Assembly: GCA_035763445.1 (NCBI GenBank)
Contig: DASUBD010000190.1
Span: 1 to 56,158 of the forward strand
Origin: Candidatus Angelobacter sp.
GTDB taxonomy: Bacteria; Acidobacteriota; Terriglobia; Terriglobales; Acidobacteriaceae
Reading direction: 5' to 3'
Length of the DNA stretch: 56,158 bases
Shown: positions 41,301 to 55,863 of the stretch, piece after piece
Layout: each line of letters begins with the position of its first letter
How positions within the stretch are numbered: position 1 is the first letter of the stretch
Position numbers and translations under genes: made by a program
Notes under the pieces: generated by a model
Seen by the model: only the letters and a program-made list of their open reading frames with translations
Told to the model about the DNA's origin: nothing
Databases searched by the model: none

Positions 41301-43586
41301 TTCTTCCGCACGATGGTTCTGCCCTCTTTCACGAGCAAAGAACTGGGCCAGAAGAGGGCGAATAGCCAACTTGGCTGTCCATTCAGAAATTGGGACGCCC
41401 TGCTGGAGGGCTTTCAATCGCGCAGTCTTGCCAGCGAGCTCGATCTCTATGTCCTGCCGTTCGAATGCGCTCAAAGATTCGCTGGCGAACTCGACAGAGA
41501 GAAACTCGATACTCCGCTGGAGCCGCGCACGCGAGTGCTCATCAGAGGCGCCCTGTGAAAGTGTTTCCCAAATCACCACACGACGCATTTGTGCCTCGTG
41601 CTGTGTGGTTAAGAGCGGTCCAAGACGTGCCGCCTCTCGTCGGCTGTCACTGAACACGAGTAAGCGTCGTCCGCGTGCGGGCAGCCATTGTCGATCACTT
41701 GCGTTGGTGACAGGCATTGTTGCCAAGAGGCTCTCGGCAGCAACTGGTAACATAAGCGCATCCGGAATCTTTATAGGACCAAAGTTGCTTTTGTCCCCAC
41801 CGCAGTTTGGACATGTTTCAAGTTCATGCATTTGGACGAATTCGCCGTCCGCTTGTTCACATGAACCGCTCTTAAGATCAAAACTGAAACCAAGCGTGCC
41901 TTCCCCCGGCCGGCAGAACAAATACGCAGCTTCTCGTATTTGTCCAGATTGCCATCGATGGCGCGGATGAAGAGTGTTGGAGGTAAGCCGCCTCACACCA
42001 GCTAATAGCCACTCACCGCAATTTTCGCAGCGGGCCAAGGTCAGTGTTGCGCTCTCACAGGAACTGCATCGATCGTAAGGCTCGCTAACGAGTTCACCAC
42101 CTCCGGGTAGACGCGGTCCCTTAGCCGAACATGCCGGATTTGCGCATGCAGTTACTGTCGAGGGAGCGCGAAATAGGATATGCAACCTGTGAGGCAGTAG
42201 AGGGAGCTCATCAACCTGACGTCGTGCTCGTGCTCCAAGCTGAAGTAGCTTTGCCGTGGCCTTCGTGGCGTCCGCACCGTTCTCCGAGGGCCACAGGAGT
42301 GCTGACAATTCCTTCAGTTTTGTAAGCGATGCCCCCCGCTTCTCCCAGACAAGAGCCTCGAGTTGATGAATAATTGGAGCACGTTCCAGCAAGGCCATAA
42401 GAACCCGAGCGGGTGATTCCTCACCCAGAGTCACATTGACGGCATCTGGGCCGACCAAAGGTGCCATAGCCGCTCGGACTGCACCAGCGGCGGTTGAGTC
42501 AGAGATGAGCTGATTGTTCTCCACGAAAGGAATAGATTCAATGTGATCCACCTGCAGGTCACTTGGTCTGCAGGTCCGCGATGGCGGCGACGCTTCTGGA
42601 AAGGCGTGGCGTACCGGCGTGCCGTGCACTGTATGTACCAGCTCTATCGGCTTCGAGAATAACTCAGCACCAAATTTCTTAAGCACCTGTGCATCGCCGC
42701 CAAAGGTGGCCGATGTTGCAATTTGGAGAACTTCTGAGGGTGAAAGCCCACATCGCAATAGAACTCGGCGAAGCAATAAAGAGAGTTCCGCAGCGAGTGT
42801 GCCACTGTAAAGATGAGCCTCATCAATAACAATCGTTCTTAGTGCCGGCCCAAAGAACGAAGTATCCTGAGGACGGCACAACATATATTCGAGCATCGAA
42901 TAATTTGTTACTAGTACATCGGGCGGGGAAAGTCGGGCCGACTCCCGAGTTCGTTTTCGACATGGCCCAAATTTCGGATATCCAATGCTGTTCGCGTGCT
43001 GTTCGTTCTCAGGTGTTTCGCTTGTGAAATGGAACAGCGTAATATCGGATTGTGGCTGCAACCAGCGATATAAACGTTCCACTTGATCATTTACCAATGC
43101 GTTGATGGGATACAGAATGACCACGCGAACGCCGCGGTCACTCTGGGGACGCGGATGTTGAAAGAGGTCGTTCAGCAACGGAAGCAAGAATGCCTCGGTC
43201 TTCCCAGCACCAGTGCCTGCACTGACAACTATCGCGGGCCGTTCCGGATCGGGCCGCGCTGCCCTCATAATGCACTCTTCTTGGTGACGATAGAGGGGCT
43301 TCGAGACGTCAAAAGCACCACTTTTCTCTACGCACTTCGCCAGATTAGGAGAGAGAACGCCAGCTTTTGATAGTAGAGCAATGTTGTTTTCTGAGACAGA
43401 TGCAGGAAAAATGCTTTCAACCCAAAGGTCCCCAACAGTTCCTTGATGATCATCGGAGAATAATTCCATGCATTGCTTCAGGAGCTCCGGATCTCGCAAA
43501 TAGACTCGCGACTCGATGAATTCGAGTAATCGTGATCTGAGTCTGGCATGTGTGTCAACCGCATCCAACTGGAACTTGTCTGTCAT
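38346..43586 (-). CDS. giant DEAD/DEAH-box helicase with internal zinc ribbons and C-terminal DUF1998/MrfA-type Cys cluster (DruE-like)
   Basis: - Helicase motifs: motif I SAGTGAGKTEAF, motif II VIDEAHLYSG, FSDSRREAARL, and motif V/VI TTTLEVGIDIGGL...YQQRGGRAGRR.
- Zinc ribbons: CANPACSAKG...CSSCES...CENCGEW and CPNCGG.
- C-terminal Cys cluster: KCTSACLNCLLTTASQ.
- Start: I chose ATG at 43586, which overlaps the upstream stop as ATGA (43583-43586). Confidence 0.9.
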   Translation of the reverse strand: MTDKFQLDAVDTHARLRSRLLEFIESRVYLRDPELLKQCMELFSDDHQGTVGDLWVESIFPASVSENNIALLSKAGVLSPNLAKCVEKSGAFDVSKPLYRHQEECIMRAARPDPERPAIVVSAGTGAGKTEAFLLPLLNDLFQHPRPQSDRGVRVVILYPINALVNDQVERLYRWLQPQSDITLFHFTSETPENEQHANSIGYPKFGPCRKRTRESARLSPPDVLVTNYSMLEYMLCRPQDTSFFGPALRTIVIDEAHLYSGTLAAELSLLLRRVLLRCGLSPSEVLQIATSATFGGDAQVLKKFGAELFSKPIELVHTVHGTPVRHAFPEASPPSRTCRPSDLQVDHIESIPFVENNQLISDSTAAGAVRAAMAPLVGPDAVNVTLGEESPARVLMALLERAPIIHQLEALVWEKRGASLTKLKELSALLWPSENGADATKATAKLLQLGARARRQVDELPLLPHRLHILFRAPSTVTACANPACSAKGPRLPGGGELVSEPYDRCSSCESATLTLARCENCGEWLLAGVRRLTSNTLHPRHRWQSGQIREAAYLFCRPGEGTLGFSFDLKSGSCEQADGEFVQMHELETCPNCGGDKSNFGPIKIPDALMLPVAAESLLATMPVTNASDRQWLPARGRRLLVFSDSRREAARLGPLLTTQHEAQMRRVVIWETLSQGASDEHSRARLQRSIEFLSVEFASESLSAFERQDIEIELAGKTARLKALQQGVPISEWTAKLAIRPLLAQFFARERGQNHRAEEWNQQVWEANHKDIARAADRLLSAEFVSPAWSQISLETLGLAEICYPGIAGLRPPDEILGRMSSEPAQVFIQNWPLFVAGLCDTLRADRAITLGNIDADQNDTYFPVGRWVGLRDRTGTMVPMIGDINRNPPARRNAFCLNVLRSAGCTAELSNELIVPVLQACFDQLRQMAESGVTWLESSSRQSRDGAPRDAIRLRLKHLTLRVPEKLFVCRITGHVWPRSVFRCAPEQGSYDSLELALPEELDNHPRLGRSRRSFKNDPAFQIGLWAEEHSAQLSSDENRRLQDLFSKGARNVLSATTTLEVGIDIGGLSGVLLGNVPPSRANYQQRGGRAGRRSDGSSIVATYARTTAFDHAVFRDFTAFFHRPLREPSVLLGRERFSRKHLHAFLLGEFFRLIYLPMTRVGAMNAFQKMGWLLGRPRLPIVRSSEKWPDRPHEFAYELNLRTDYPWWGDQQLSVADQFGNFIEALREAGSPYLEKIKTLLASTPLSNKVQAWDSLMAEVAHSFRKACVEWRSDYDGLVEEWVRRLRWTEKTSISQLNAIAHQADALWGTTVIEELGTRQFLPRYGFPIGVQSLTVPSNRSVSRVPIKLERSGILAVSEYVPGSKVLVGGRTYTSQGVLPAWRKGAEETGFGKRCWKYVCDAGHVSYSFLPDQTPLCKIKGCTCMKRDQGEPLLIARYGYSTAVWDPPQWEGNVERIGDTSLATMAFIEGRSNIRTDDFAGIRHLSAELCEGGEMLSYNNGENEKGFAICTRCGYSQSEPDHGEGRMNLPKGFSDHTALHLDRGICWPRDASPVFRNHLFAATHVTDILQLDFSSVGHRDLSSDVIVTLGHGLRLAGAELLEIDHRELGVHFAPSGQAARLGLYLFDNTAGGAGHVSELATNANARSWFERTAELLYRNSEHDRKCTSACLNCLLTTASQADLELGRLRRPVALAVLRDLLANRQYETEGAESPSTASPAQPISAAERIERFRRKSPNQRH

Positions 43587-46500
43587 TTCACTTTGCCCAA
43601 CACCTCTAACAATTCCAAAACAAGCCATCTGCGAAATGGCTGGACTCCTATTGCAACCCGTAGGTTCGTGGATCGAATGTTTCTCCCGTGGTACAGATCT
43701 ACTGCTTCGTTCCAGAGTACCCGTCGAACAAAAGCTGGATCAGCACCCAACTCCTTTACCCCCCGCTGAAAGAGTTCGGTTCTTACAGCATCGAGAGTCC
43801 CGGACTCCCTCGGCAACCCGGCAATTATGTTCGCGAACATGGACAACAATAGTTGGCGTTCCGCATCGGAAACGTTCGAATACATTGATTTCACACCGCC
43901 CACGACGATTGCCGCCAGCAAGACTGGATTAATTAACGCGAGCTCCGACGACCCCATCCAACTGTCTTTGAGATCGCTTTCTGGCGATCCAGTCAACAAT
44001 CTCGTTGCGCGCAATATTTCAGAGGCTTGAAGTTCGTTCGGCATCCAATGCCAAAAGAACTCCCGAATAACAGCGCCCCAACCGGACGACCCGATGCTTT
44101 CATCGGTGTAGGACATGTCCCCGAATCCGCTGTCGGCCACCCACGAAAGAAGAGTCGGTAATTGTGATTTGTCAATGCATTTGGCTGCAAGATCCTTTAG
44201 TCTCGGATGTAATAAAGGAATGCGCCACCAGCGCATCCAGGGCCTAACAGCTTCCCAGGATTCAGGTGTTAAAACTTCTCTTAGCTCATCGATACATTCA
44301 CTGTGAACGAAACGAGACCCGAGGCATGATCCACGGAAGCTCACTGCGAAGGCCAAGGCCTGCTGCGTGGTATGGACAATCAGATCCCTGCCGACACATG
44401 AAATCTGTCTACGATCCACGTTGCGCGGCGCGTGTTCTCCTCTTTGCCAGATCCAAACGCCGTGCTCGGGTCCAAAATCGAGGGCACTGGAAAGCGTCAG
44501 GCAGTACCCGCCCTCTGTCGCGTCTATGTTTGCGATTAAGCCACTGTCCGAGATAGCAAGGGCAAGATCAATGCCCTGGCCTGAGGAGTTATAAGGTCCA
44601 ATTGTAAGCCGCAACGGTTCCCCTACGCCTGCAAGGACACTATCCAGCCCCGCAACACCCTGACGACGGCTTCGCGCGCAGAACCTTTGTCCCTCTAACA
44701 GTGCCCATTCCTCGGTCTCCACTTGAATGCCATGCCACGACCGCGGGGGACGGATAAACAGTTTCTTGCCAATAAAATCCTGGCGATCGAGCATGTCATT
44801 CGAATTCAGTACAAGCCAACCAGAATTTTTCTTCCGCAAAGCCGCCCCCCAGACATCATTAAGAAGAACAATTCGTGCCGCAAGCTTGTGCACGCCGGTT
44901 CCTTCCGTCGCTAGGATCCCAGCCTTTATGCGATCGTAGTTGAGAGGCGCCAATGCGACCTTGAATCCGCTTGCTGATCGTCGCACGATCTGATCGCCGA
45001 TAATGAGAGCTATTGCGGTCAGTTCTGGTGGCATCGAAACGTCAGCGGTCGAATATTCCCCGAGCCTACCTCCCGACAGGCGTATTTGAATACTGGACGG
45101 AGACTGACGCCTACTTCCGGCAGGCTCCAATGGTTGCCACAATAACTGGCCTTCCAATTCAACCTTCAAATTTTGGGGACAGCCGTTCGGAAAATCGTGG
45201 AGCACCCAAGAGTTTTGGGCAACCCGCCTCATGCGAATTCCTTTAGGAAAGACCTGAATATCCCCTCGACATGCCAGCACAACAGGGCGACCTGGTTTGA
45301 CGTTCCAGAGATCCTGTCGTTTTCCTGTAGATCGATCAAAGAACACGAGTTCATCTTCACCATTGAAAATACTGAGAGAATAGCCGGACGCGATGCAGTG
45401 GCCTTTTTCAATGAGTGTAATGCTCAATTGCGTCTCTAAAAGGGGTATGCGGAATTCGCCGAGAATGAATCTGCCTTGTTCCGACCGTATCAGCCTTGCG
45501 CGATATTCCTCTCCAAACTGAACGACATACTCTGGAGCGCTGAACTCCTCCGGCCAATTTGGTGAAGCCTCGATGCAGACACTCGGATCTGCACTGTCCC
45601 AAAGCAATCGAATGACAAATAGGTCTGACTCTTCATCCTCCTGGCCGAGCAAACCCTGAGAGGGCTGTGATTCGGTTTTCTCCGAAGCGGCCGCGATGAG
45701 CTGGTCGACATCGTGCCAGGAGAACCAAGTGCTACCTTCGAGCACTTTTCGCAGTTCTGCGGTACTTTGTAAACCGCTTCGATATTGACGGACCTCTGCC
45801 CACACATTCCGAAATTCAGGTGCTTGTAAGTCTGGATCATCAAGGAGATCATTAATGGCGACTGGGAGTTTTGCTCCTGAGAGCCACTTCGGTAGACGGC
45901 GCAAGCCGCTCGTTGTTAAGCCGAACTGCAAATACACCGTTCGCAACCAGGCCATGGCACCTTCACGTCCGAACGCGTGACGAAGGTTGAATCTTCTGCA
46001 GGCATCTTCCGTTGCTTCTTGTAACCAATACTTGGGTACGGCCCTGTCTCCGTTGAACAATTCCGACCTGAGATGCTCTCCGATTTCGCGATAAATCTGC
46101 GGCCACAACTCTCCCTCTGTTGCACGCCTACGCGCGACATCGAAACAATAGGCTAGGAAGACAATCGCTAAAGCCTCCCTTTGTGTCAATGCTCGGCTCT
46201 GGAACGTTCTGCTTTTCTGGCCTTCGATGCTCGCTGATTTTGCCCAACGGTGTAAGACGCTCAAATCGTCCGCTGACCAGTTCAGCTCAACCATTGACCA
46301 ACGGGAATCATCAACGAGTAATCCCAAGCTCTTTGCTCGGGCTAGCAAACGCATTGCGGCACTCCAAACAAAGAACTCTGAAGACGCGCTCAGATCGAAA
46401 AATAGAGTGGGTTTGCCCTCCGGTCCCCAATTAGCACCAATAGCAGATGCGATTGCTGCCTGGGCTGCGTCCGGCGTGTTCACGGATTCGGATGGCACTG

Positions 46501-48340
46501 CCGCGTCTCTGCCCACCAAAGTGTAGTATCCACTGCCAATCGGTTTGATAATCGCCGAAGACCCTATCGTCCTCTCGAGAGATGCTTCGCTCCCGTCGGA
46601 GAAGGTCGAACAGATCCGTTTGAGATCAATGCGTCGTACTGGGCCAGGCTGGTCACGCAACGCGACATATATTGCGGTCTCCGCTTCCGATAAGTCGGCA
46701 CCTGATTGGTCGGCAGCACACATCACAGTGCCGCCTTCAACTTTGAGGTAACCAGAGCAGCTGGAACATAAGCGCTCTAAAACAGGAGAAGGTAGATTAA
46801 TGTCGGAAGTACGAGAATCACGTAAAACAGCACTCCGTAGCTCTTCGACCGTAACTGTCTTGGCTACCGAGAAGACTTTTCTTATTCGGCTCATGATCGG
46901 GTTCCGCGGCACTTCCGCAGACCAGAACCACTCTCGGCTTTGATCCAACCATGTTAGCCCGCGGAGCAGAGGGAGGAACTTTTCGATGTAAGATCGTGAG
47001 TGCCCGCTTTTAGCGTCGGCGAGACCATCGGCAACGTATGTTACCGACGTGATCCCGTATTGGCTGATCCTTTTGCGTGCTTCGTTCAAAATCTTACTGA
47101 CCAAGCCTATCGATTGCGAATCAACGGCGATGCGAACGCCACCCTCCTCGATAATTGAGAATGACACGGGAAGTTCAAACATCTCTGCTATCTTTCGCAG
47201 GGACTCGAGTCTAAAGGGTCGCGAAGTCAAACCGCTGCTCAAAAGCTTACGCTCAAGTTCCTCCGCGTCGCAGGGGCTGTGCTTATTGACAAAGCAGAGC
47301 GCTAATCGAAGCGAACCAGGGGCTTTGGATCCCATTCGTTCACGAATTTTCTCCAGAATTTGCCGGACTCTTTCTCGTGTTAAGCCAAGCGGTCGACCGA
47401 TCTCTTCCAAAGTTTCTGTTGGCCTACCGTCAAGGCCGAAATATCTGATCGCAATTTCTCCGTTTCGTCCTTCGCGCACAACTCGACGGCAGAGCTCGAC
47501 ATCGAGACATTCCGGGGCGGCCTCCTCGGAAGATAGCAGGTCCGAGCGGAAAAGTGTTGCCAGTTCAGAAAGCCACTCTTTTTGCCACGGTGCGAGCTGA
47601 TCAGACAGTTCAATTCCGAGTTCTTTTAACTGGTTGCGGACGATGGCCACTTCCTCTGGTGATAGAGTATTCGCCAGGAATGCTTCGCCTCCTTGAAGCA
47701 ACTCTCCAACCACGCTAATGCCCCGGAAACGCAGAGAAAGTTTCCCGCAGCCAATTGTGTCTATTCCACGCAAGAGGTGGAGATTGACAGAGAGCAGCTG
47801 TTCTTTGCTGGATTGATATAGCGACTGAAGGCTGTATAGTTCAGCTTCGGTCATGCCCAGATGCAAATCCAAATTCGAAATTAGTTCTTGGATTTCCTGG
47901 AGTGTCTTGCTCCCAAGATTCTTCAGTCGGCGAATCTTGTCAGCCCTCAGCGAAACGAGTTCACCAATTGTGCTTATTTTCGCTTGCTGTAGACAATTAG
48001 CAGCGCGGACCGACATCGAAAACCGAGCAACAGGAGTGTCAAGCAATGAAGCGAAGGGCAGTTTTTGTGTGTTAGAGAGAACCGCACCGTCGATTGCTGC
48101 TACGAGGAACCCCGCATTTGCTCGGTGAAGCTCACATGCTAGAACACACGCAAACTCCCAATCGCAGCTGAGTCCGTGCAGATCAGAGAAAAGCGGGATC
48201 CCTTGTCCTACCAGAAATCGTAAAACATTGGGCACCGCCACCCGATTTGCTCGCAAAGAGGGATAGATAAATGCTCGCAAAGCCACGCGCGCTGAGTCAA
48301 TCATTGGACGGAGTGGTTCACGTTTGGATGCTGACTGCAA
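43583..48340 (-). CDS. 1585-aa protein: N-terminal RNA polymerase alpha-CTD-like HhH module(s) plus sigma-70 region-4-like HTH, followed by ~1200 aa of unknown function
   Basis: - Alpha-CTD-like segment: FSMSVRAANCLQQAKISTIGELVSLRADKIRRLKNLGSKTLQEIQELISNLDL matches the RpoA C-terminal domain pattern (LS-x-R-x-x-N-C-L...I-x-x-x-G-x-L...L-x-x-x-x-N-x-G-x-K-S/T-x-x-E-I).
- A weaker second copy: LSLRFRGISVVGELLQ...EEVAIVRNQLKELGIEL.
- Sigma-r4-like segment: IRYFGLDGRPTETLEEIGRPLGLTRERVRQILEKIRERM matches sigma-70 region 4.2.
- The start is uncertain: TTG at 48340 or ATG at 48304. Confidence 0.88.
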   Translation of the reverse strand: MQSASKREPLRPMIDSARVALRAFIYPSLRANRVAVPNVLRFLVGQGIPLFSDLHGLSCDWEFACVLACELHRANAGFLVAAIDGAVLSNTQKLPFASLLDTPVARFSMSVRAANCLQQAKISTIGELVSLRADKIRRLKNLGSKTLQEIQELISNLDLHLGMTEAELYSLQSLYQSSKEQLLSVNLHLLRGIDTIGCGKLSLRFRGISVVGELLQGGEAFLANTLSPEEVAIVRNQLKELGIELSDQLAPWQKEWLSELATLFRSDLLSSEEAAPECLDVELCRRVVREGRNGEIAIRYFGLDGRPTETLEEIGRPLGLTRERVRQILEKIRERMGSKAPGSLRLALCFVNKHSPCDAEELERKLLSSGLTSRPFRLESLRKIAEMFELPVSFSIIEEGGVRIAVDSQSIGLVSKILNEARKRISQYGITSVTYVADGLADAKSGHSRSYIEKFLPLLRGLTWLDQSREWFWSAEVPRNPIMSRIRKVFSVAKTVTVEELRSAVLRDSRTSDINLPSPVLERLCSSCSGYLKVEGGTVMCAADQSGADLSEAETAIYVALRDQPGPVRRIDLKRICSTFSDGSEASLERTIGSSAIIKPIGSGYYTLVGRDAAVPSESVNTPDAAQAAIASAIGANWGPEGKPTLFFDLSASSEFFVWSAAMRLLARAKSLGLLVDDSRWSMVELNWSADDLSVLHRWAKSASIEGQKSRTFQSRALTQREALAIVFLAYCFDVARRRATEGELWPQIYREIGEHLRSELFNGDRAVPKYWLQEATEDACRRFNLRHAFGREGAMAWLRTVYLQFGLTTSGLRRLPKWLSGAKLPVAINDLLDDPDLQAPEFRNVWAEVRQYRSGLQSTAELRKVLEGSTWFSWHDVDQLIAAASEKTESQPSQGLLGQEDEESDLFVIRLLWDSADPSVCIEASPNWPEEFSAPEYVVQFGEEYRARLIRSEQGRFILGEFRIPLLETQLSITLIEKGHCIASGYSLSIFNGEDELVFFDRSTGKRQDLWNVKPGRPVVLACRGDIQVFPKGIRMRRVAQNSWVLHDFPNGCPQNLKVELEGQLLWQPLEPAGSRRQSPSSIQIRLSGGRLGEYSTADVSMPPELTAIALIIGDQIVRRSASGFKVALAPLNYDRIKAGILATEGTGVHKLAARIVLLNDVWGAALRKKNSGWLVLNSNDMLDRQDFIGKKLFIRPPRSWHGIQVETEEWALLEGQRFCARSRRQGVAGLDSVLAGVGEPLRLTIGPYNSSGQGIDLALAISDSGLIANIDATEGGYCLTLSSALDFGPEHGVWIWQRGEHAPRNVDRRQISCVGRDLIVHTTQQALAFAVSFRGSCLGSRFVHSECIDELREVLTPESWEAVRPWMRWWRIPLLHPRLKDLAAKCIDKSQLPTLLSWVADSGFGDMSYTDESIGSSGWGAVIREFFWHWMPNELQASEILRATRLLTGSPESDLKDSWMGSSELALINPVLLAAIVVGGVKSMYSNVSDAERQLLLSMFANIIAGLPRESGTLDAVRTELFQRGVKELGADPAFVRRVLWNEAVDLYHGRNIRSTNLRVAIGVQPFRRWLVLELLEVLGKVK

Positions 48341-48462: not shown

Positions 48463-49539
48463 ATGATTTACAAACGAGGCCAGACGTACTGGTATAAATT
48501 CGCCTGGAGCATCAGGCAGCGAGACGGGACTTCGCGGTCGTTCTTGATACGCCGATCAGCGCGGACAAAGATCCAGGCCGAAGCTGAAGAAGTCGAACAT
48601 GAGCACCGTCGTGCCATCCGGTTGGGCGAAGTTCATCCGCTCGATCCCTGGCCCAAACCGCCGGCGCCTGAAGCGCCGATCCTAAGGGAGTTCACAACTC
48701 GCTTTCTCGAATACGCGAGATTGCATGTGAAGGAAAGCACTTTCGAGTTTTACAAAGGTGCTGTTGCCCGCTTACTGGCATTCCCCGAGCTCGCTAATAT
48801 ACAAATCTCCAAAATCAATCCAGAGATCGTTTCCCGCTTCGCCGGAAGCCGGAAGGCTAAGTCCGTAAGCGTAAGTGCAATCAATGGTGATCTACGGACA
48901 TTGCGCCGCTTGCTCAGGCTGGCTTTTGAATGGGAGATCATCCCGAGGGCACCTGTCGTGCATGCCCTCCCTGGAGAAAGAACCAGAAATCGGGTGATCG
49001 CATTCGAAGAAGAACAAGCATATCTGACGTGTTCGGGACCAAACCTGCGTGCGCTGACCATTCTTGCAGTTGATACAGGGATGCGCCCAAAATCGGAGTT
49101 GTTCAGGCTGGAGTGGCCTCAGGTCCACTTGGAACCGTCTGAAACGATGCCGAACGGACACATTAAAGTCAAAGAGGGAAAGACTCAGAGCGCGGAGAGA
49201 ATCCTCCCATTGACACCCCGGGGCGGGGAAACCCTACTTATATTAAGGATAGAGGTTCGCAGGAAGCGGTGGGTGTTTCCCGGACCCGGGAATTCAGGTC
49301 ACATCGTCAGCATTCAGAAGTCCCATCTCAGGGCAATCCTGAAAGCCGGCCTGGAGCGGTTCCCGTTCTACTGCTGGCGCCACACATTCGGTACGAGGTG
49401 CGCCGAGAGCGGAATGGATCGGCACACCCTCGCCAAATTGATGGGGCACAGCTCACCATGGATCACAGAGAAGTACTACATCCACGTGACCGAGCCGCAT
49501 ATCAGCTCCGGGTTCGGCCGTTTATGGCGTATCATATGA
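48463..49539 (+). CDS. tyrosine-type site-specific integrase
   Basis: The N-terminal arm-type MIYKRGQTYWYKFAW is present. Catalytic residues are in AVDTGMRPKSELFRLEW (Arg), CWRHTFGTRCAESG (H-x-x-R) and GHSSPWITEKYYIHV (His...Tyr). Confidence 0.92.
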   Translation: MIYKRGQTYWYKFAWSIRQRDGTSRSFLIRRSARTKIQAEAEEVEHEHRRAIRLGEVHPLDPWPKPPAPEAPILREFTTRFLEYARLHVKESTFEFYKGAVARLLAFPELANIQISKINPEIVSRFAGSRKAKSVSVSAINGDLRTLRRLLRLAFEWEIIPRAPVVHALPGERTRNRVIAFEEEQAYLTCSGPNLRALTILAVDTGMRPKSELFRLEWPQVHLEPSETMPNGHIKVKEGKTQSAERILPLTPRGGETLLILRIEVRRKRWVFPGPGNSGHIVSIQKSHLRAILKAGLERFPFYCWRHTFGTRCAESGMDRHTLAKLMGHSSPWITEKYYIHVTEPHISSGFGRLWRII

Positions 49540-49689: not shown

Positions 49690-50724
49690 TTATGACCGAG
49701 GCGGATAGGTCGTTGACGACGTTGCTTCTGCAGGAGGAGTACTGATTCGGCTTCTCTCGTCAGCGAGACGTTTCCACTCGTCAATATCGAATGTACCAAC
49801 GTGATTTGCCAAATCATCGTGATGCAAGCTTGCCTCAGTTACTGTAATCGTATGTAAAACGATACCGTTCTTGCCGACAACTCTTGGCCTCAGCGCGTCA
49901 AAAGCCCTCGGATCAGGAAAATCCCTGAAATTCCGATAGAAGATATGAGCGCAGATGTCCGCCACTTGGAGGCCAATCATTGACTTCGAATCGCGAAAGT
50001 TTGTGTGATTTCTAAATAAGTCATTGAAGTCGAACAAGCCTTTGTAGACTAGATATTTTCTTTTGAACGGATGATCAGGAGGCCATTCTTTGATCGTCGT
50101 CACTCCGCGCTGCCGACTGTTTTTCATTAGATCATTGCGCAGCCACTCGCGCCAGAACTCAACGTGCTCGTCTCTTCTGACGAAGCTCTCATCAATGGCG
50201 ATCTCAATATTTTCAAACTCGCTGGAGTGCTCCAGTTCTGCGAAACTGACAATCGCATGTTGTAGTGTTTCGATAATTGCTTGCTGAAGCGCGATAACCC
50301 AAAACACGTTAGATGTGCTTCGGTTTCTAACCCAGCCGCTCATCTGTCGATAGGTCTCTCTCAATTTGTTGTTCTCATGCTCGGCGCACAACTCAGAGGA
50401 CAACTGGAATAGCTCGGCAGCCTGATCGCGCAGCCGTTCGACAAATGATTCTTCGGTGGCTTGCGTGTCTCCGCCGACGAGCGTCAGGTGAATTTCTCGC
50501 CTAGTCGGAGGGAGCACCTTGTATGCGAAAGAGTACAGCTGGTTTGCCGTTAGATGTGGCCCCTTCAACTCCGCCTTGCTCTGTCCTACAACCGTGCGTT
50601 TCCAAGCCGCGAAACGCTTTTCCAATTCAGGCAATTCCTTATCGGAAACATTTAGTCCGCAAAAAAGAGACTTGCCTTTGTTCGTCCAAGAAAATGACCC
50701 GGATTCGTCGATAAAAATCCACAT
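49690..50724 (-). CDS. DUF3800-family protein
   Basis: The N-terminus MWIFIDESGSFSW is the hallmark F/Y-I-D-E-S-G start of DUF3800. The 344-aa size fits. Confidence 0.75.
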   Translation of the reverse strand: MWIFIDESGSFSWTNKGKSLFCGLNVSDKELPELEKRFAAWKRTVVGQSKAELKGPHLTANQLYSFAYKVLPPTRREIHLTLVGGDTQATEESFVERLRDQAAELFQLSSELCAEHENNKLRETYRQMSGWVRNRSTSNVFWVIALQQAIIETLQHAIVSFAELEHSSEFENIEIAIDESFVRRDEHVEFWREWLRNDLMKNSRQRGVTTIKEWPPDHPFKRKYLVYKGLFDFNDLFRNHTNFRDSKSMIGLQVADICAHIFYRNFRDFPDPRAFDALRPRVVGKNGIVLHTITVTEASLHHDDLANHVGTFDIDEWKRLADERSRISTPPAEATSSTTYPPRS

Positions 50725-50771
50725 AATCAGCGTCCATTCAGGATTCTTGGCTGCCCATTATTATTTCAACA

Positions 50772-50912
50772 CTACGTCCTCTCTCTTGGAGGTGGGGGCG
50801 GCAGCGGATGCGGAGGATCGATCTTGATGACACGATCCGTATCGCGTGTAGGTCTCTGGGGTTGGGGAGGTGGTGGTTGGGGTGGCTGCTGCGGTTTCCC
50901 TTTCTCGGCCAT
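50772..50912 (-). CDS. 46-aa proline-rich micro-ORF (speculative)
   Basis: My translation is MAEKGKPQQPPQPPPPQPQRPTRDTDRVIKIDPPHPLPPPPPREERT. Its ATG shares one nucleotide with the TGA of the upstream 2TM gene (tgatg at 50910-50914). The sequence is low-complexity, so coding status is doubtful. Confidence 0.25.
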   Translation of the reverse strand: MAEKGKPQQPPQPPPPQPQRPTRDTDRVIKIDPPHPLPPPPPRERT

Positions 50913-51385
50913 CAGTATCCTCTGTTTTTCATCATTTGTGTGAAAGCCTTTTCCCTAAGTTTATCAATGACGGGCAGGCCAGTCTCATCTGTTTTGGCTT
51001 GGAGCTTTGTAGCTTCTTCAAAACGTTTCCAAGTCTCCGGGCTTGCCAAATCGGAATCGAATTGCCACAAAAGGTCGTATTCAATCGCGATCTGCTTCCA
51101 GGATCCGACCAGCGAAGCAATCCTTTTCAAACGGTCATTAGTGATGCTGTGGAACCAAGTACCCACCGGAACGGCCATGGAAAGGATCGTCAGGATGACA
51201 GGAGAGTGCGCCCAAATTGTCCAAGCCGCAACAGCAGGGGATAATGCACTGACACCTTTCACGGCCATCTCAATCTTGGTCTCTCGCCGAGCGAGGAGAG
51301 TCCAATAGCAAACATTGAACTCCGCAACAAGCAGAGCTTTCCACAGTGTTGCGCGGTGTTCTGGAACCGCAACAGGAGAACTCAC
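50912..51385 (-). CDS. two-TM membrane protein with helical tail (possible membrane effector)
   Basis: The predicted TM helices are IEMAVKGVSALSPAVAAWTIW and SPVILTILSMAVPVGTWF, followed by an amphipathic helical C-terminus. The GTG start is preceded by AAGGAG. The layout is reminiscent of SLATT-type 2TM effectors, which is inference only. Confidence 0.65.
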   Translation of the reverse strand: MSSPVAVPEHRATLWKALLVAEFNVCYWTLLARRETKIEMAVKGVSALSPAVAAWTIWAHSPVILTILSMAVPVGTWFHSITNDRLKRIASLVGSWKQIAIEYDLLWQFDSDLASPETWKRFEEATKLQAKTDETGLPVIDKLREKAFTQMMKNRGY

Positions 51386-51411
51386 GTCAATCTAGCTCCT
51401 TGCGGCAATGA

Positions 51412-51885
51412 TTAGGCGGCACCAAAGAATGGGATCCCACGTGGCGTCCCTGCGTCGAGCGCAAGATGGGATATGTAGCCTGGAACAAGGCCATTCAGCA
51501 GGCCTGCCAGAAAGCTCCAGAACAGCTGGGCTAGCTGCTGTAAAAGGGTGAGCGGAACCACTGGCTTCATCGCCCCGGTAACTGGATCTTGCACCGTCTG
51601 GATTGCCCGATATTTGTTGGCCTGTTGGCGGCAGTAATCGGCCCACTGTGCCAGCACCTTATCAATACCGAGCACAACTCCCCCGGCACTTACGCTGTGA
51701 CACGTACCCCTATGCCACGAGGAGATGGCAGGCTCCAGAAAATCCGGCAGCATTGACGACAAGTATCCGCCGCATCCACCCCCAATCGTCTCCATCAAAC
51801 AATCAGGTGTTCCCCACGATTGGTATGCGACACGTGCCGCACCAGTAACTGTTCCAGCAATTTGATGTTTCTTGCGACCTGGCAT
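51412..51885 (-). CDS. DUF457/YdjM-like membrane-bound metal-dependent hydrolase homolog
   Basis: LSSMLPDFLEPAISSWHRGTCHS matches the PD-x-D/E...HRG-x-THS motif. The C-terminal GYISHLALDAGTPRGIPFFG matches the SH-x-x-x-D...G-x-P motif of DUF457. GGAGAAGGA SD lies upstream. Confidence 0.65.
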   Translation of the reverse strand: MPGRKKHQIAGTVTGAARVAYQSWGTPDCLMETIGGGCGGYLSSMLPDFLEPAISSWHRGTCHSVSAGGVVLGIDKVLAQWADYCRQQANKYRAIQTVQDPVTGAMKPVVPLTLLQQLAQLFWSFLAGLLNGLVPGYISHLALDAGTPRGIPFFGAA

Positions 51886-51988
51886 TTAATTTCCTTCTCC
51901 AAACTCATGCCGAGAGTAGAATCCTTAGACCTCGCTCCCAATAAGGTGAATGCCCGTGTACAACAGCCGGGAGCTGTGCCTGGCGATC

Positions 51989-52318
51989 TTACGCCGTGTA
52001 CTTTAGAACATCTTGGTTTGAAGCAGGAATCAGGCCTTGCCAGTGGCGGTTATCATCAGCTTTTGTGACGAACGTACCAGCCCTTTGCCATACCATTTTG
52101 ACAATACCCGATGCCTCATCGCGAACACCAGCGGTGGTCTTGGAAAGTTCCGCTGTGTAAGTCGCATTTGGCATGTGGTACCACTTATCCTCATCACTCT
52201 TGATCACCCGGTAGTAGCCGCTTTGCTGCATGGCGACGTGAAGTCGTTCGTAGTCGTCATAATCGGGCTTATTCCCGCTGTATTCGTGCAACTCCACCCT
52301 TACAGTGAATCGAGGCAT
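51989..52318 (-). CDS. small alpha/beta protein of unknown function
   Basis: MPRFTVRVELHEYSGNKPDYDDYERLHVAMQQSGYYRVIKSDEDKWYHMPNATYTAE has a beta-alpha-beta pattern reminiscent of ferredoxin-like (Cas2/VapD-like) small proteins; this is inference. A strong GGAGG lies 7 nt upstream of the ATG at 52318. Confidence 0.65.
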   Translation of the reverse strand: MPRFTVRVELHEYSGNKPDYDDYERLHVAMQQSGYYRVIKSDEDKWYHMPNATYTAELSKTTAGVRDEASGIVKMVWQRAGTFVTKADDNRHWQGLIPASNQDVLKYTA

Positions 52319-52353: not shown

Positions 52354-53799
52354 TCAAACCCGACACGGAAGGCGGACAGCATCGCCTCGACCCTTCCGGC
52401 TTCTGCTTGTCGTACCGCAATCGAGGCAGAAAGGATCCGGCTTCGGTTCAACGAAACTGATTCGTCTCTCACGAGCAAAGTTCATGATGTGGCCCATCTC
52501 AGCGTTCGGCTCGAAAAGGCCAGTGAACATCATCATTAAATCTGTTGCGGCTTGAGCGGCTGATTGAACATTGAGTGTGATTACACTAGGTTCCGTGACT
52601 TGAGGATCATCCACGTAATTTTGGGCTCTCTGCTCTTCAGCGTTGTTTCCCTCCGAGTTGAGCCGCGAAGCAGGAATCGCGCCAGCACAATCGAGACACC
52701 CACCACCGAGGCCGGGTAGTACCAAGCGAGTTGCTGTGAAGATGTTCGCCACCTCACGCGTGTACTTGTCCGCTGTGACTTTCGCGCCGATCTGCACGCC
52801 AGGGATCACGTACTGGTGAACTAGAGCGTTGAAGACGAGGCGACTCCGAATTGAGTCCGTAGCCAGGAAAATGAAATCTGCATCGCGAACCAACATGGCC
52901 GTAGAGGAATCGAGGATATCGGCGACCAAAGCGTCGTATGTGATTGAAGGATTTGCCTTCTTAGCGACCCGTTTCGCTATATGAACTTTGTGAGCTGCCA
53001 GCCGCTTGCCGAGCCGTTGCAGCCAACCCCAGCGACTTCCGGTTAGCCAAGTTCTAGCATCCCATCGCGTTGCACCAACAACGCGTGGCAGATTGGTTAT
53101 GTCGATTCGATCGAAGTCAATGGCTACGATGTGACCGACACCTAATTTCGCAAGCCACTCATTCAACAACGAGCCACCACCGCCGAGTCCGATGATGACG
53201 ATTTTTAGTCCCCGGAGAATCTCTTGGCCTGCGTCACCGAAAAGGCGTGCATGGCGGTCATACACTCGCTTTGACCGACGCGGCATATCCTGCGGCGATG
53301 GGTACAAAAGACGCGTGTGCTTTCCAACGATCTTCATGTTCTTTAAAGGGAAAACTCCCTCAGTTGTCCAGATCTCTCCAGCTACGGCGGCCTTGGCGAA
53401 GACCAGTGCGCCGACCGGAATGCCGTTTGAGATTTGAAGCAGAGCCGGGTAGCCTCGCTTGTGAGAGGCAACGTCGTCAGGGGAGAAGCCGACAGAATCA
53501 AAGCCGCCGTGATTGTGGATGGCTAGATAACAGAGACCCTCGGTCGAACAAAAGTCCGATTTTTCAGCGACGAAGTTGGCAGTCAACGCCCGGTAGCCGC
53601 GAGTCCCTGGAATGTAATCGACTCCATCCTTCGCGAGGAACACCTCGCGAGCTAAAAGTCGAGTCCCATTCGGTGTCTGTGCGATGCCGGCAGCTATAAC
53701 GGCTCCATGCTCGTCAAAATCGCCGGGAAACAAATGCTGGTGCAGCCTGTTGAATAAGACCTCATCAATGGTGAGCGTGATCGGCAATTTAAGCTTCAT
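52354..53799 (-). CDS. fusion of JAB/JAMM-type isopeptidase domain (N-terminal) and ThiF/E1-like adenylating domain (C-terminal)
   Basis: - JAMM motifs: DEHGAVIAAG (Glu) and AIHNHGGFDSVGFSPDD (H-x-H...S...D).
- E1 Rossmann motif: KIVIIGLGGGGSLLNEWLAKLGVGHIVAIDFDRIDITNLPR.
- Two CxxC pairs, GGGCLDCAG and PFCLDCG, as in ThiF/MoeB zinc sites.
- The ATG at 53799 overlaps the E2-like stop as ATGA. Confidence 0.9.
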   Translation of the reverse strand: MKLKLPITLTIDEVLFNRLHQHLFPGDFDEHGAVIAAGIAQTPNGTRLLAREVFLAKDGVDYIPGTRGYRALTANFVAEKSDFCSTEGLCYLAIHNHGGFDSVGFSPDDVASHKRGYPALLQISNGIPVGALVFAKAAVAGEIWTTEGVFPLKNMKIVGKHTRLLYPSPQDMPRRSKRVYDRHARLFGDAGQEILRGLKIVIIGLGGGGSLLNEWLAKLGVGHIVAIDFDRIDITNLPRVVGATRWDARTWLTGSRWGWLQRLGKRLAAHKVHIAKRVAKKANPSITYDALVADILDSSTAMLVRDADFIFLATDSIRSRLVFNALVHQYVIPGVQIGAKVTADKYTREVANIFTATRLVLPGLGGGCLDCAGAIPASRLNSEGNNAEEQRAQNYVDDPQVTEPSVITLNVQSAAQAATDLMMMFTGLFEPNAEMGHIMNFARERRISFVEPKPDPFCLDCGTTSRSRKGRGDAVRLPCRV

Positions 53800-54173
53800 A
53801 ATTTTCGGAACCACTCCAGGACTTTCGCTAATTTGAGTGCTGCTGTATCGTGCGCTGCATTCCATTTGTTTGAACGACGCGAGAGCTGCAAGACCTGCTG
53901 GTTGCGCCATGTCACCTGCTGGACACCTTGTCGGGCTTGGCCATCTCGGCGACTGATCCCCCCAATGATGTAATGTGGGTATATGTCGGCTCTTGGATAG
54001 AGATAGCTAATCCGAAATCCGCAAGAGGCAACCGACGGCTGGTACTGCGAGCCGATCTCGATGTCAACCACAGTTACGTAGGCACCTCCCTCTCCATCTT
54101 CCTCAGCGATGACAGCGCTATTGGGGAACATGGCCTTAATTTCGTCAATCCCAGCTGAGACGTCTGGCGTCAT
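53796..54173 (-). CDS. prokaryotic E2/UBC-fold-like protein (Prok-E2_E-like)
   Basis: The 125-aa protein contains FRISYLYPRADIYPHYIIGG (a YP...P flap as in the UBC/RWD fold), followed by TWRNQQVLQLSRRSNKW and a C-terminal helix. It sits between the Ubl and E1 genes. GGAG SD lies upstream. Confidence 0.75.
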   Translation of the reverse strand: MTPDVSAGIDEIKAMFPNSAVIAEEDGEGGAYVTVVDIEIGSQYQPSVASCGFRISYLYPRADIYPHYIIGGISRRDGQARQGVQQVTWRNQQVLQLSRRSNKWNAAHDTAALKLAKVLEWFRKL

Positions 54174-54187
54174 ATCGCGGCTCCGAA

Positions 54188-54535
54188 TTAGGAATTGTCG
54201 TCCGGCGCAGTCGCACGGAATTCTTCGTTTTCGTGGATCTTTACATTCTCGTTGTCACCGATCAGCGTGAGCTTGCCGTCTCCGTGCTTTTCGAAAAGTT
54301 GGAAGTCCTTTTCAATCGCAACTCCCTTGCTGATCGCGGCTTCTTTGATTTGGAGCCCTGTGACGTCTTTCTCCTGAAAGCCGATCGGCTGGTTATTTAC
54401 CTTGATGGTGATGACTTTCACCTTTTCATTGGTCTGCGTTGTGTTTTCCAAGTGCCCTCCTAAGGCTTTCTGAGTTCTTGATGGGCAGGATGGTATTCCG
54501 ATTTGCCGTTTGTTGTCAACGGTTTTTTCGGACAT
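54188..54535 (-). CDS. ubiquitin-like beta-grasp protein (Multiubiquitin-family-like), single domain with ~38-aa N-terminal extension
   Basis: KVITIKVNNQPIGFQEKDVTGLQIKEAAISKGVAIEKDFQLFEKHGDGKLTLIGDNENVKIHENEEFRATAPDDNS matches the Multiubiquitin domain pattern as I recall it (I-x-V-N...T-G-x-Q-I...L...D-x-x-V-x-I...F...A-P). ATG at 54535 was chosen because the longer track ORF would run into the divergent XRE gene. Confidence 0.75.
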   Translation of the reverse strand: MSEKTVDNKRQIGIPSCPSRTQKALGGHLENTTQTNEKVKVITIKVNNQPIGFQEKDVTGLQIKEAAISKGVAIEKDFQLFEKHGDGKLTLIGDNENVKIHENEEFRATAPDDNS

Positions 54536-54632
54536 CGCATACGGACGATATAAGTTGCTTATTTTCTGGTATTTTGCAGAAATCGAAGCTAGAATCAAAT
54601 TCGAGACATCACCACGAGGGAGCGGGTAACGG
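54536..54632. promoter_or_regulatory. AT-rich divergent intergenic region with candidate operator
   Basis: This is the 97-nt gap between the Ubl operon and the XRE gene. It contains the inverted repeat tttctg-N8-cagaaa (54563-54582) and a TAGAAT -10-like hexamer at 54590-54595. Both are short and could occur by chance. Confidence 0.35.
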
Positions 54633-55001
54633 ATGGAAAACTTCGGGCAGAGGCTTCGGAATTTGCGTGGAGGCCGTTCCCAAAGAGAAGTTGCGAGTGC
54701 TCTGGGCATGCCTGCCACGACTCTATCAACGCTAGAAAATCAAGAAAGCGTGCCACGTGGAGAGGTTCTACAGAAACTGGCTGAGCATTTCAAAGTACCA
54801 CTTAGCTATTTCTTCCGAACCCCAGACTCAGAACCTAAAGTAAATGCAGCTGCTCTGGATTGGTTGCAAAGGCTGAGAGCTAATAAGTTTCAAGGCAAAG
54901 AAACCGTGGCTACCAATGCAAGTGATCTCGTGGATGAAGAAGTTAAACGCAAAATTGCGAGAGCCCTGAAGCGGCATGCAGAAATTTCAACCGACAAGTA
55001 A
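54633..55001 (+). CDS. XRE-family HTH transcriptional regulator (CapH/ImmR-like)
   Basis: FGQRLRNLRGGRSQREVASALGMPATTLSTLENQESVPRGEVLQKLAEHFKVPLSYFF is a canonical Cro/C1-type HTH. Confidence 0.9.
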   Translation: MENFGQRLRNLRGGRSQREVASALGMPATTLSTLENQESVPRGEVLQKLAEHFKVPLSYFFRTPDSEPKVNAAALDWLQRLRANKFQGKETVATNASDLVDEEVKRKIARALKRHAEISTDK

Positions 55002-55863
55002 TCCCCTTCTAGAACCACAACCGGAGGAAATAGCCGAAACCCTTCTTGTTGAGGCTGGCTCTGCGAATGAGCTTCCAACGGACGAACGCAAGCTGTTGAA
55101 CTACCTTGGCCTTCAACAGCTGAGCTTCGACTTTATGCAGGAACTTGAGGATTTCATTCCCAAGGACAAGAAAACTCTTCCTGATATTCGCGCAGCTCTT
55201 AGCGTAAACGATCGAATTGTGGCGACGCAGGCGGGACTCCCCAGTAAGCGTAAGAAATGGGCGACGCTGCACGAGATCGCTCATTTCATCATGCCTGAGC
55301 ACCAAGCGAAGTTGTTTCTACCAGACAATGACCAGACGCTAGGCTGGTGGGTAAAGATGCGATTTGAGCGGGAGGCGAATGCCATAGCCGCCGAACTTAT
55401 GTTCCAAGGTAATCGTTTCACCGAGGAATCGTTGAACCTTCCCACTTCGATCCGAGCACCTATTCAGTTGTCAGCTAATTATGATGCCTCGCTTGAATCT
55501 GCCATTCGGCGCTATGCGGAACGGCACGTACTCCCTTGCGCCGTAATCGTCTACGACAAGATTCCAAGAGAATTCGATGAAGGTGATGCTGACGAATCAG
55601 AATACAAAATTCATTACACGATCACTTCTTTGCCGTTTCGACGAAAGTACTTTGCTGGTCTGGAGATCAAAGGTGGATCTGTCAAGGGCAGTGAACTCCT
55701 TCGAAGAGGTCACGGCTGGAGATTCAACGATATTACAGAGGCTGAATTGATTGTTGGTCGAGGGGGAGAAGAGGAACCTTGGCATTTTGAGACTGAAGTT
55801 TTCTCCAACAGCTACAAAATCTTCCAATTCCTTCTGCCGCCAAAGGAGACTCTGCAGTTTTAG
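54976..55863 (+). CDS. ImmA/IrrE-family (DUF955) zinc metallopeptidase (CapP-like)
   Basis: The HEXXH motif in WATLHEIAHFIMPEH is followed by FEREANAIAAELMF (the third ligand Glu region). It overlaps the XRE gene by 26 nt. Confidence 0.88.
   Translation: MQKFQPTSNPLLEPQPEEIAETLLVEAGSANELPTDERKLLNYLGLQQLSFDFMQELEDFIPKDKKTLPDIRAALSVNDRIVATQAGLPSKRKKWATLHEIAHFIMPEHQAKLFLPDNDQTLGWWVKMRFEREANAIAAELMFQGNRFTEESLNLPTSIRAPIQLSANYDASLESAIRRYAERHVLPCAVIVYDKIPREFDEGDADESEYKIHYTITSLPFRRKYFAGLEIKGGSVKGSELLRRGHGWRFNDITEAELIVGRGGEEEPWHFETEVFSNSYKIFQFLLPPKETLQF

Follow-up and report, generated by a model that had tools for sequence, protein, structure and literature searches.

A candidate BubE-less, serine-ended clade of Bub-type ubiquitin-like conjugation operons, represented in Candidatus Angelobacter

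What would a ubiquitin-like protein that ends in serine do beside enzymes of the conjugation type? The question is raised by three contiguous minus-strand genes in a 56,158-nucleotide stretch of Candidatus Angelobacter sp. DNA (contig DASUBD010000190.1; the whole stretch is referred to here as the window), which encode, in order, a ubiquitin-like protein (Ubl), a protein resembling a ubiquitin-conjugating enzyme (E2) and a JAB peptidase fused to a ubiquitin-activating-type enzyme (E1). The explanation that we favor, with a probability of roughly 0.6, is that the operon is intact, that it belongs to a separate, BubE-less clade of Bub ('6E') operons, and that it carries out damage-inducible, cysteine-free Ubl conjugation under a CapH/CapP switch. 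The features of the locus are as follows.

54188 to 54451, minus strand: Ubl (BubA-like), 87 aa from TTG 54451, one Multiubiquitin beta-grasp domain.
53796 to 54173, minus strand: E2-like open reading frame (ORF), 125 aa, with a GGAG ribosome-binding site before its start.
52354 to 53799, minus strand: JAB-E1 ORF, 481 aa.
53290 to 53799, minus strand: JAB/JAMM peptidase domain, about residues 1-170 of the 481-aa protein, with E30, H95, H97, S106 and D109.
52354 to 53262, minus strand: E1 (ThiF-type) adenylation domain, about residues 180-481.
54452 to 54632: divergent regulatory region, described from pattern matches.
54633 to 55001, plus strand: CapH-like helix-turn-helix (HTH, XRE-type) repressor, 122 aa, divergent from the Ubl operon, its end overlapping the capP start.
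54976 to 55863, plus strand: CapP-like M78 (ImmA/IrrE) metallopeptidase, 295 aa, with HEIAH (HExxH) at residue 99.

The three minus-strand genes were established from the ORF listing and by direct reading of the strand. The Ubl stop codon (TAA, 54188-54190) is followed 14 nt further on by the start of the E2-like gene, the TGA stop of which shares an ATGA overlap with the ATG of JAB-E1, and none of the three ORFs is truncated. For the Ubl, TTG 54451 (87 aa) is the most likely start codon, in preference to the alternative ATG 54535 (115 aa), because an AGGAGG (54461-54456) lies 4 nt 5' of the TTG, because a sigma-70-like promoter falls within the 115-aa reading, and because Ubls of the family are mostly 88-92 aa long, with a 96% identical homolog (P0278) called at 87 aa. 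We also considered whether the separate Ubl and E2 genes are a frameshifted BubAB; this was rejected, as the two lie in different frames, the E2 gene has its own ribosome-binding site and the split is usual in the clade.

To which known proteins, then, are the three products related? The Ubl matches Pfam Multi_ubiq above the gathering score (E 8e-9 and 3.7e-9 at lengths of 115 and 87 aa, respectively); its sequence found no match among PDB sequences, and the best PDB match of its family profile is 9cd2, the multi-ubiquitin protein of E. coli ZDHYS365, a type II BubA (E 0.028). The C-terminal part of JAB-E1 matches Pfam ThiF (E 1.8e-27), and a phmmer search of PDB sequences returned Citrobacter BubCD chains as the best matches for the protein (E 1.2e-21), spanning the JAMM and E1 regions and aligning BubCD E28/H91/H93/D104 with the JAMM residues of the window protein. 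An AlphaFold2 (AF2) model of JAB-E1 built on 58 sequences (predicted local distance difference test, pLDDT, 88.8; predicted template modeling score, pTM, 0.90; loop ~371-410 less confident) retrieved eight chains of full-length BubCD first in Foldseek (E ~1e-30, best 7.5e-31; template modeling score, TM, 0.74-0.80), and next UBA5, MccB, ThiF and MoeB at ~1e-13, over the E1 core alone. The PADLOC E1-E2 models likewise match the Rossmann core alone of the window protein (best E 8e-9). The identity of the E2-like protein came from its family profile, from transitive Prok-E2_E matches and from a fold search: Pfam Prok-E2_E is matched by 22 of its 57 relatives, BubB chains from Citrobacter are the only PDB matches of the family profile, weakly (E 0.83), and the AF2 model (pLDDT 92.4) has one significant PDB neighbor in Foldseek, BubB 9eae_C (E 3e-5, TM 0.77), with RWD and ubiquitin-conjugating (UBC) folds far behind. 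As the trio matches Bub proteins by sequence and fold, its members are homologous to BubA, BubB and BubCD, respectively.

These results bear on an initial annotation made from the DNA letters alone, which had described a tight minus-strand trio with a 14-nt gap and an ATGA overlap, a Multiubiquitin-like Ubl of ~115 aa, a UBC-fold-like protein of 125 aa, and a 481-aa fusion of JAMM and ThiF/E1 domains with two CxxC pairs. The gene arrangement, the E2 assignment and the fusion were all confirmed, and placement of the three proteins in the Ubl, E2 and E1/JAB families, on the failure of which by profile search that reading had been staked, holds by profile or fold search. For the Ubl, the family assignment stood while the length gave way to the likelier 87 aa.

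Homology to Bub proteins raises the further question of whether the catalytic positions are retained. In JAB-E1, read from alignments of 122 and 58 sequences, the JAMM site has four invariant residues, E30, H95, H97 and D109, together with S106, for which conservation is at least 90%. In the E1 domain, the glycine-rich loop at 204-210 and R239, the equivalent of Citrobacter R227, are invariant. Tyr395 of the crossover loop (codon 52615-52617) is present in 100% of the 122 sequences and aligns with BubCD Y370, which is needed for Ubl transfer (Ye et al.). The cysteines C368, C371, C458 and C461 are 100% conserved in the same 122 sequences and are predicted from their pattern to form a structural zinc tetrad of the ThiF/MoeB/UBA5 type; besides these zinc-type CxxC pairs, the alignment has no other conserved cysteine in or near the E1 crossover region.

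The E2-like protein presents a comparable pattern. No conserved cysteine column is found in its family alignment, and the candidate catalytic residue is Ser98 (codon 53880-53882) within the motif QLSRRSN. This serine is invariant in the 57 relatives and, at 50% identity clustering, is kept by 128 of 141 representatives. The residues invariant in the close family are G29, P60, D63, Y65, P66, S98, R99 and K114; the loop before the serine contains the conserved D63, conservation of H67 is partial (91/148), and position 100 is Arg or Lys in 100 of 137 representatives. The family motif VSRRSNrWNPaiDT aligns with BubB WSRHRSWNPEIDS given a one-residue shift from the HMMER alignment, and this shifted alignment places S98 on the BubB catalytic S333 and R100 on H335.

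The Ubl C-terminus sets the locus apart. A C-terminal glycine is near-universal in E1-dependent Ubls, among them ubiquitin, SUMO, NEDD8, Atg8/12, Urm1, SAMPs, BilA, BubA, ThiS and MoaD, and a Gly-Gly tail is what E1 enzymes normally thread. The window Ubl ends ...APDDNS-COOH. The exact DDNS end is found in 108 of 120 family Ubls and also in the multi-domain Ubls of the clade, nine of the 120 carry DDNS followed by 4-17 unrelated residues, and the remainder include DDIS-Y and DDAS. Ubl and E2 are fused in ~6% of clade representatives, and these natural fusions keep DDNS at the junction with a variable next residue (G, D, D, D, F, R or Y), or, in more divergent fusions, have the junctions DDEAS|F and NDESS|Y. 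Since extended and fused Ubls keep DDNS and then vary, the conserved element is a serine-ended acidic tail with a processing site directly after it.

How far, then, does the locus resemble characterized Bub operons? The closest reference is the type I Bub operon (formerly '6E.1') of Citrobacter sp. RHBSTW-00271, comprising BubAB, BubCD and BubE (Ye, Gong, Chambers, Corbett; PDB 9ea4, 9ea8, 9eae, 9eav). The two systems share the JAB-E1 domain order, the JAMM site, the adenylation arginine and the crossover-loop tyrosine, a BubB-fold E2 with serine, cysteine-free catalytic positions in E1 and E2, a Multiubiquitin Ubl, an upstream CapH/CapP pair and carriage on mobile elements. In contrast, the window has separate Ubl and E2 genes where type I has the BubAB fusion, no BubE/DUF6527, a Ubl ending in ...DDNS instead of Gly, an E2 with S-R-R instead of S-R-H, and an E1 with a predicted four-cysteine zinc site and a conserved RLPCR tail. 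Thus, of the features that define Bub, the Ubl of one to three Multiubiquitin-type beta-grasp domains (one in the window), the cysteine-free E1 with crossover tyrosine and JAB fusion, and the BubB-fold serine E2 are present. Conjugation through Tyr and Ser oxyesters has been demonstrated for Bub types I and II (Ye et al.), and Bub Ubls have a conserved C-terminal glycine, which in type I is exposed by JAB cleavage (Bub papers).

Another arrangement is provided by Bub variants on plasmids of Deinococcus sp. AB2017081 (L034, 3247-7887) and Bradyrhizobium (L041, 3299-7394). As in the window, their Ubl, E2 and JAB-E1 are encoded separately and in that order, and the E1 has CxxC pairs and the crossover-loop tyrosine. 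Unlike the window, however, they encode DUF6527 and a 'phosphotransferase' (kinase-like) gene of ~480-530 aa that lies outside the published definitions of both Bub types, I and II. Their Ubls have the glycine-type ends ...FGGGV or ...FGHGNH, the E2 carries S-W-H, and the JAB-E1 is 27% identical to that of the window. More generally, DUF6527-bearing relatives have JAB-E1 proteins 24-27% identical to the window protein, glycine-type Ubls including ...TDG|EV, and the E2 motifs S-W-H or S-R-H.

Is the window operon then an oddity or one of many? Of 28 related loci, 25 have the trio unfused and in this order; the loci belong to Nostocales, Pyrinomonadaceae, Planctomycetaceae, Dehalococcoidia, Solirubrobacterales and a gammaproteobacterial metagenome-assembled genome. 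The trio is present as well on Mycolicibacterium, Rhizobium and Rhodococcus plasmids (JAB-E1 40-48% identical) and in metagenome loci. Searches returned 2788 JAB-E1 clusters (E 1e-10), 2816 Ubl clusters (E 1e-3) and 324 E2 representatives (E 1e-3, 50% clustering), and homologs span cyanobacteria, Acidobacteriota, Actinomycetota, Chloroflexota, Planctomycetota and Proteobacteria. Recurrence of the trio in the same order across several phyla therefore makes the operon more than a chance arrangement. Within this family three states co-vary: the serine end of the Ubl, the S-R-R motif of the E2 and the loss of BubE. In a phmmer search with a DUF6527 seed, combined with a Cys-motif scan, of the window and all loci, the seed's own locus was the sole match. 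A regular-expression match in one related locus (L032) was considered as a hidden DUF6527 and rejected as a spurious GC-rich ORF.

The regulator pair offers a further link to Bub. The CapP-like protein is matched by PADLOC capP (9.7e-17) and Pfam Peptidase_M78 (7.2e-8), and the CapH-like protein by Pfam HTH_3 (1.3e-12) and PADLOC capH (1.6e-7). The HTH gene is followed by the M78 gene, the two adjoin and both are divergent from the operon, the arrangement that defines a CapH/CapP pair; a CapH/CapP-like pair lies upstream of 31% of catalogued Bub operons. Among the related loci the HTH and M78-peptidase pair is the only recurrent neighbor of the trio and is adjacent in most of them, with the divergent HTH gene kept in many. 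By analogy, the M78 peptidase would be the sensor and activator of the pair. The intergenic region holds a candidate minus-strand sigma-70-like promoter (TTGACA at 54519-54514, an 18-nt spacer and TACCAT ending at 54490; 10/12 consensus), and no perfect inverted repeat of the kind expected for a CapH operator was found in it. An imperfect inverted repeat at 54505-54523 (GCCGTT-N7-AACGGT, plus strand) overlaps the -35 element of the predicted Ubl promoter and is a candidate CapH operator.

By homology to the characterized systems, a sequence of events can be proposed. CapH would repress the divergent promoter until DNA damage or infection activates CapP, which would remove CapH and switch the operon on. 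The E1 domain would bind the 87-aa Ubl and adenylate the C-terminal carboxylate of its serine (...DDNS), after which the Ubl would be transferred first as an oxyester to crossover-loop Tyr395 and then to Ser98 of the cysteine-free E2, which may pass it to lysines of host or phage targets. Speculatively, the basic R99/R100 pair of the E2 might read the acidic Asp-Asp tail of the Ubl. A minority of Ubl precursors have extra C-terminal residues or a fused E2; the JAB domain would process these by cleavage immediately after DDNS, and, because the clade is without BubE, it is probably a deconjugase too. Such a pathway could serve a stress response or an anti-phage role.

Several observations weigh against this reading. 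The window E2 sequence has no direct match in Pfam, NCBIfam, PADLOC or PDB sequences, the JAB domain finds no JAB match in Pfam even at E 10, and sequence identity to BubCD and BubB is ~18-21%. The histidine that accompanies the Bub E2 serine is replaced by Arg100: neither the Ser-x-His of type I (His plus Asp) nor the Lys plus His of type II stands beside the serine, the window having S98-R99-R100. A terminal serine as substrate of this E1 would be a departure from the usual Gly-Gly tail, and no C-terminal glycine such as that of catalogued Bub Ubls is present. Neither DUF6527 nor BubE occurs in the Pfam lists of neighbor genes for the window and related loci. The C-terminal tail of JAB-E1 adds a complication: after the second CxxC it runs SRRARGD-x-RLPCR (52354-52425, ~residues 459-481), ending ...RLPCRV in the window, and Cys479 within it is near-invariant, so that Cys479 could be an alternative or mobile nucleophile, or the tail a docking element. 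Some members lack this cysteine, and the tail motif is absent from the aligned region of Citrobacter BubCD and from the clade members L026, L040 and P0004. Lastly, as regards a defense role, no phage protection has yet been reported for any Bub operon (Ye et al. preprint; PMC13373217).

Could the departures from Bub mark a different chemistry? One possibility, which we consider doubtful, is that the three co-varying states, the invariant acidic ...DDNS-COOH tail, the Ser-Arg-Arg E2 site and the loss of BubE, together mark a third type of bacterial Ubl pathway activating a C-terminal serine, with linkage, target class or reversal possibly novel. Such a pathway might use an acceptor other than lysine or other than protein, or be recycled by JAB alone. 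If true, it would be an exception to the 'terminal glycine' rule of E1-dependent Ubl conjugation.

Unlikely is a system that does not conjugate proteins at all, in which the DDNS tail is adenylated for another fate, such as an MccB-like Asn succinimide, nucleotidylation or a non-protein acceptor, and the E2-like protein is a non-catalytic RWD-like adaptor. The non-glycine Ubl end with its penultimate Asn, the E1 with a zinc tetrad of ThiF/MoeB/MccB type and MccB among the next-best structural neighbors (E ~1e-13), and the E2 devoid of cysteine and of the Bub histidine are consistent with it, and an inactive E2-like domain of RWD-like fold was what Iyer et al. predicted in 2006. However, the positions corresponding to the Tyr and Ser proven to be catalytic in Bub are kept, MccB, UBA5 and ThiF match the generic E1 core alone and far below BubCD, and no conserved biosynthetic, export or immunity genes stand beside the trio. 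Asn-dependent tail chemistry, whether intein-like or MccB-like, is further down-weighted because the natural variants DDIS, DDAS, DDEAS and NDESS lose Asn and keep Ser.

It is highly improbable that the locus is a decayed or domesticated Bub remnant that has lost BubE and the proper Ubl terminus and no longer conjugates. While BubE and a terminal glycine are indeed absent and the window locus sits among unrelated small genes in a mosaic island, the ORFs are full length, and the thousands of homologs across phyla (the 2788 JAB-E1 and 2816 Ubl clusters above) keep the trio, the DDNS end and all catalytic residues, which fits purifying selection. Least credible of all is a ThiF/MoeB sulfur-carrier or cofactor system with a ThiS/MoaD-like thiocarboxylate that merely resembles a Ubl system: the best-named NCBIfam and Pfam matches of the E1 are indeed ThiF/MoeB, and relatives are annotated in databases as ThiF, MoeB or TcdA, but the NCBIfam scores of 44-64 bits are far under curated cut-offs of 159-376, the Ubl has no Gly-Gly end, no locus contains cofactor genes (rhodanese, ThiG/ThiH or MoaE), the E1 shares its polypeptide with an active-looking JAMM peptidase and has an E2-fold partner, and the contexts are plasmids, integrases, transposases and defense genes.

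The BubE-less Bub assignment also separates the locus from the better-known bacterial conjugation systems. Bil (BilABCD) and Cap2/Cap3 have in common with it E1/E2/JAB conjugation in bacteria and residence in defense islands. In contrast to the window, Bil encodes its JAB separately and has an E1 with two adenylation domains, one inactive and one active, and a Cys domain, a cysteine E2 and a glycine-ended Ubl; the single adenylation domain fused to JAB, the cysteine-free E1 loop and E2, and the serine end therefore do not fit Bil. Cap2 of CBASS (cyclic oligonucleotide-based anti-phage signaling system) is an E2-E1 fusion acting on the CD-NTase, again unlike the window.

Where the operon is carried is similarly informative. 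The related loci adjoin HTH/M78 regulators, integrases, transposases, toxin-antitoxin genes, a group II intron and a prokaryotic Argonaute (pAgo) gene. The remaining annotated genes of the window are listed below.

38346 to 43628, minus strand: DruE-like helicase, 1760 aa, PADLOC DruE3 4.9e-200, with DEAD, Helicase_C and MZB (MrfA Zn-binding) domains.
43583 to 48340, minus strand: gene in the DruH position, 1585 aa, overlapping DruE, with RNA-polymerase alpha C-terminal-domain-like and sigma-70 region 4-like domains.
48463 to 49539, plus strand: tyrosine integrase, Phage_integrase 4.3e-17, between the Druantia pair and the Ubl operon.
49690 to 50724, minus strand: DUF3800 protein, between the Druantia pair and the Ubl operon.
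50912 to 51385, minus strand: 157-aa protein with no match.
51412 to 51885, minus strand: YdjM-like protein, sub-threshold.
51989 to 52294, minus strand: 101-aa protein, weak YmfI-phage-like match (1.2e-4).

The first two genes (38346-43628 and 43583-48340) are likely a type III Druantia pair; the 1585-aa protein had no match to DruH models. The placement of the integrase and the DUF3800 gene suggests a mosaic integrative island, and no tRNA gene was found in the window. The setting fits carriage of the locus on a mobile or defense island; a defense function, suggested by this context, is putative.

The initial annotation had pointed to an integrase and other defense-type genes nearby, and the tyrosine integrase and the Druantia DruE helicase agree with this. 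It had also asked whether homologous operons sit in MoaD/ThiS cofactor settings; none did, mobile and defense-type neighbors being found instead. Its proposed cloning span took in the downstream genes at 49690-52294, which are not conserved with the system: the DUF3800 gene and the genes at 50912-51385, 51412-51885 and 51989-52294 recur in no related locus and were rejected as components. The CapH/CapP pair, the cysteine-free E2, the absent DUF6527 and the non-glycine Ubl end had been left out of its account.

A phage origin of the system was considered and rejected, as no relatives were found in IMG/VR (pattern scan) or INPHARED (tblastn). Among the related loci, one Nostocaceae contig (JBHYDF010000001.1) carries two cassettes in opposite orientation ~35 kb apart (L010, 36007-51467; L011, 70736-86196), and their identical scores suggest a large inverted duplication. 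Elsewhere, a cassette adjoins a Piwi/pAgo gene and a PD-(D/E)XK nuclease (L003, 450-5271), and another adjoins DUF6361, a ResIII helicase and a large-protein set (L005, 10919-17350).

How new is the clade? The gene class itself is not: Iyer, Burroughs and Aravind described in 2006 a standalone E2/RWD-like gene between multi-beta-grasp and JAB+E1 genes (the '6e' neighborhood), with an E2-like domain predicted inactive and a zinc-finger protein, now DUF6527, named as a further component. The '6e' class (Pfam Multi_ubiq, Prok-E2_E) thus covers the locus, although that work set apart no DUF6527-less, serine-ended clade, and sister branches of the class were characterized in 2024-2026. The architecture, in which the initial annotation had seen a strong candidate for a poorly characterized or uncharacterized conjugation-based defense system, had therefore already been predicted as a class. 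Literature searches, with the supplementary Bub catalogue outside their scope, turned up no description of a Bub clade that is serine-ended, lacks BubE or has S-R-R. Every catalogued Bub operon is said to contain bubE, the catalogue having been built from DUF6527-containing operons (Bub papers). As the clade is without DUF6527, it was probably missed by that catalogue, and bacteria therefore probably have a broader range of ubiquitination-like systems than the catalogue shows.

The main surprise is the non-glycine Ubl end in a large and phylogenetically broad clade. With a three-gene core, cysteine-free E1 and E2, no E3 and no separate deconjugase, the system is a compact test case for how an E1 chooses the C-terminus of its substrate, for oxyester relays and for the real function of Bub-type systems, and the CapH/CapP switch together with the defense-island setting makes a damage- or phage-induced role directly testable.

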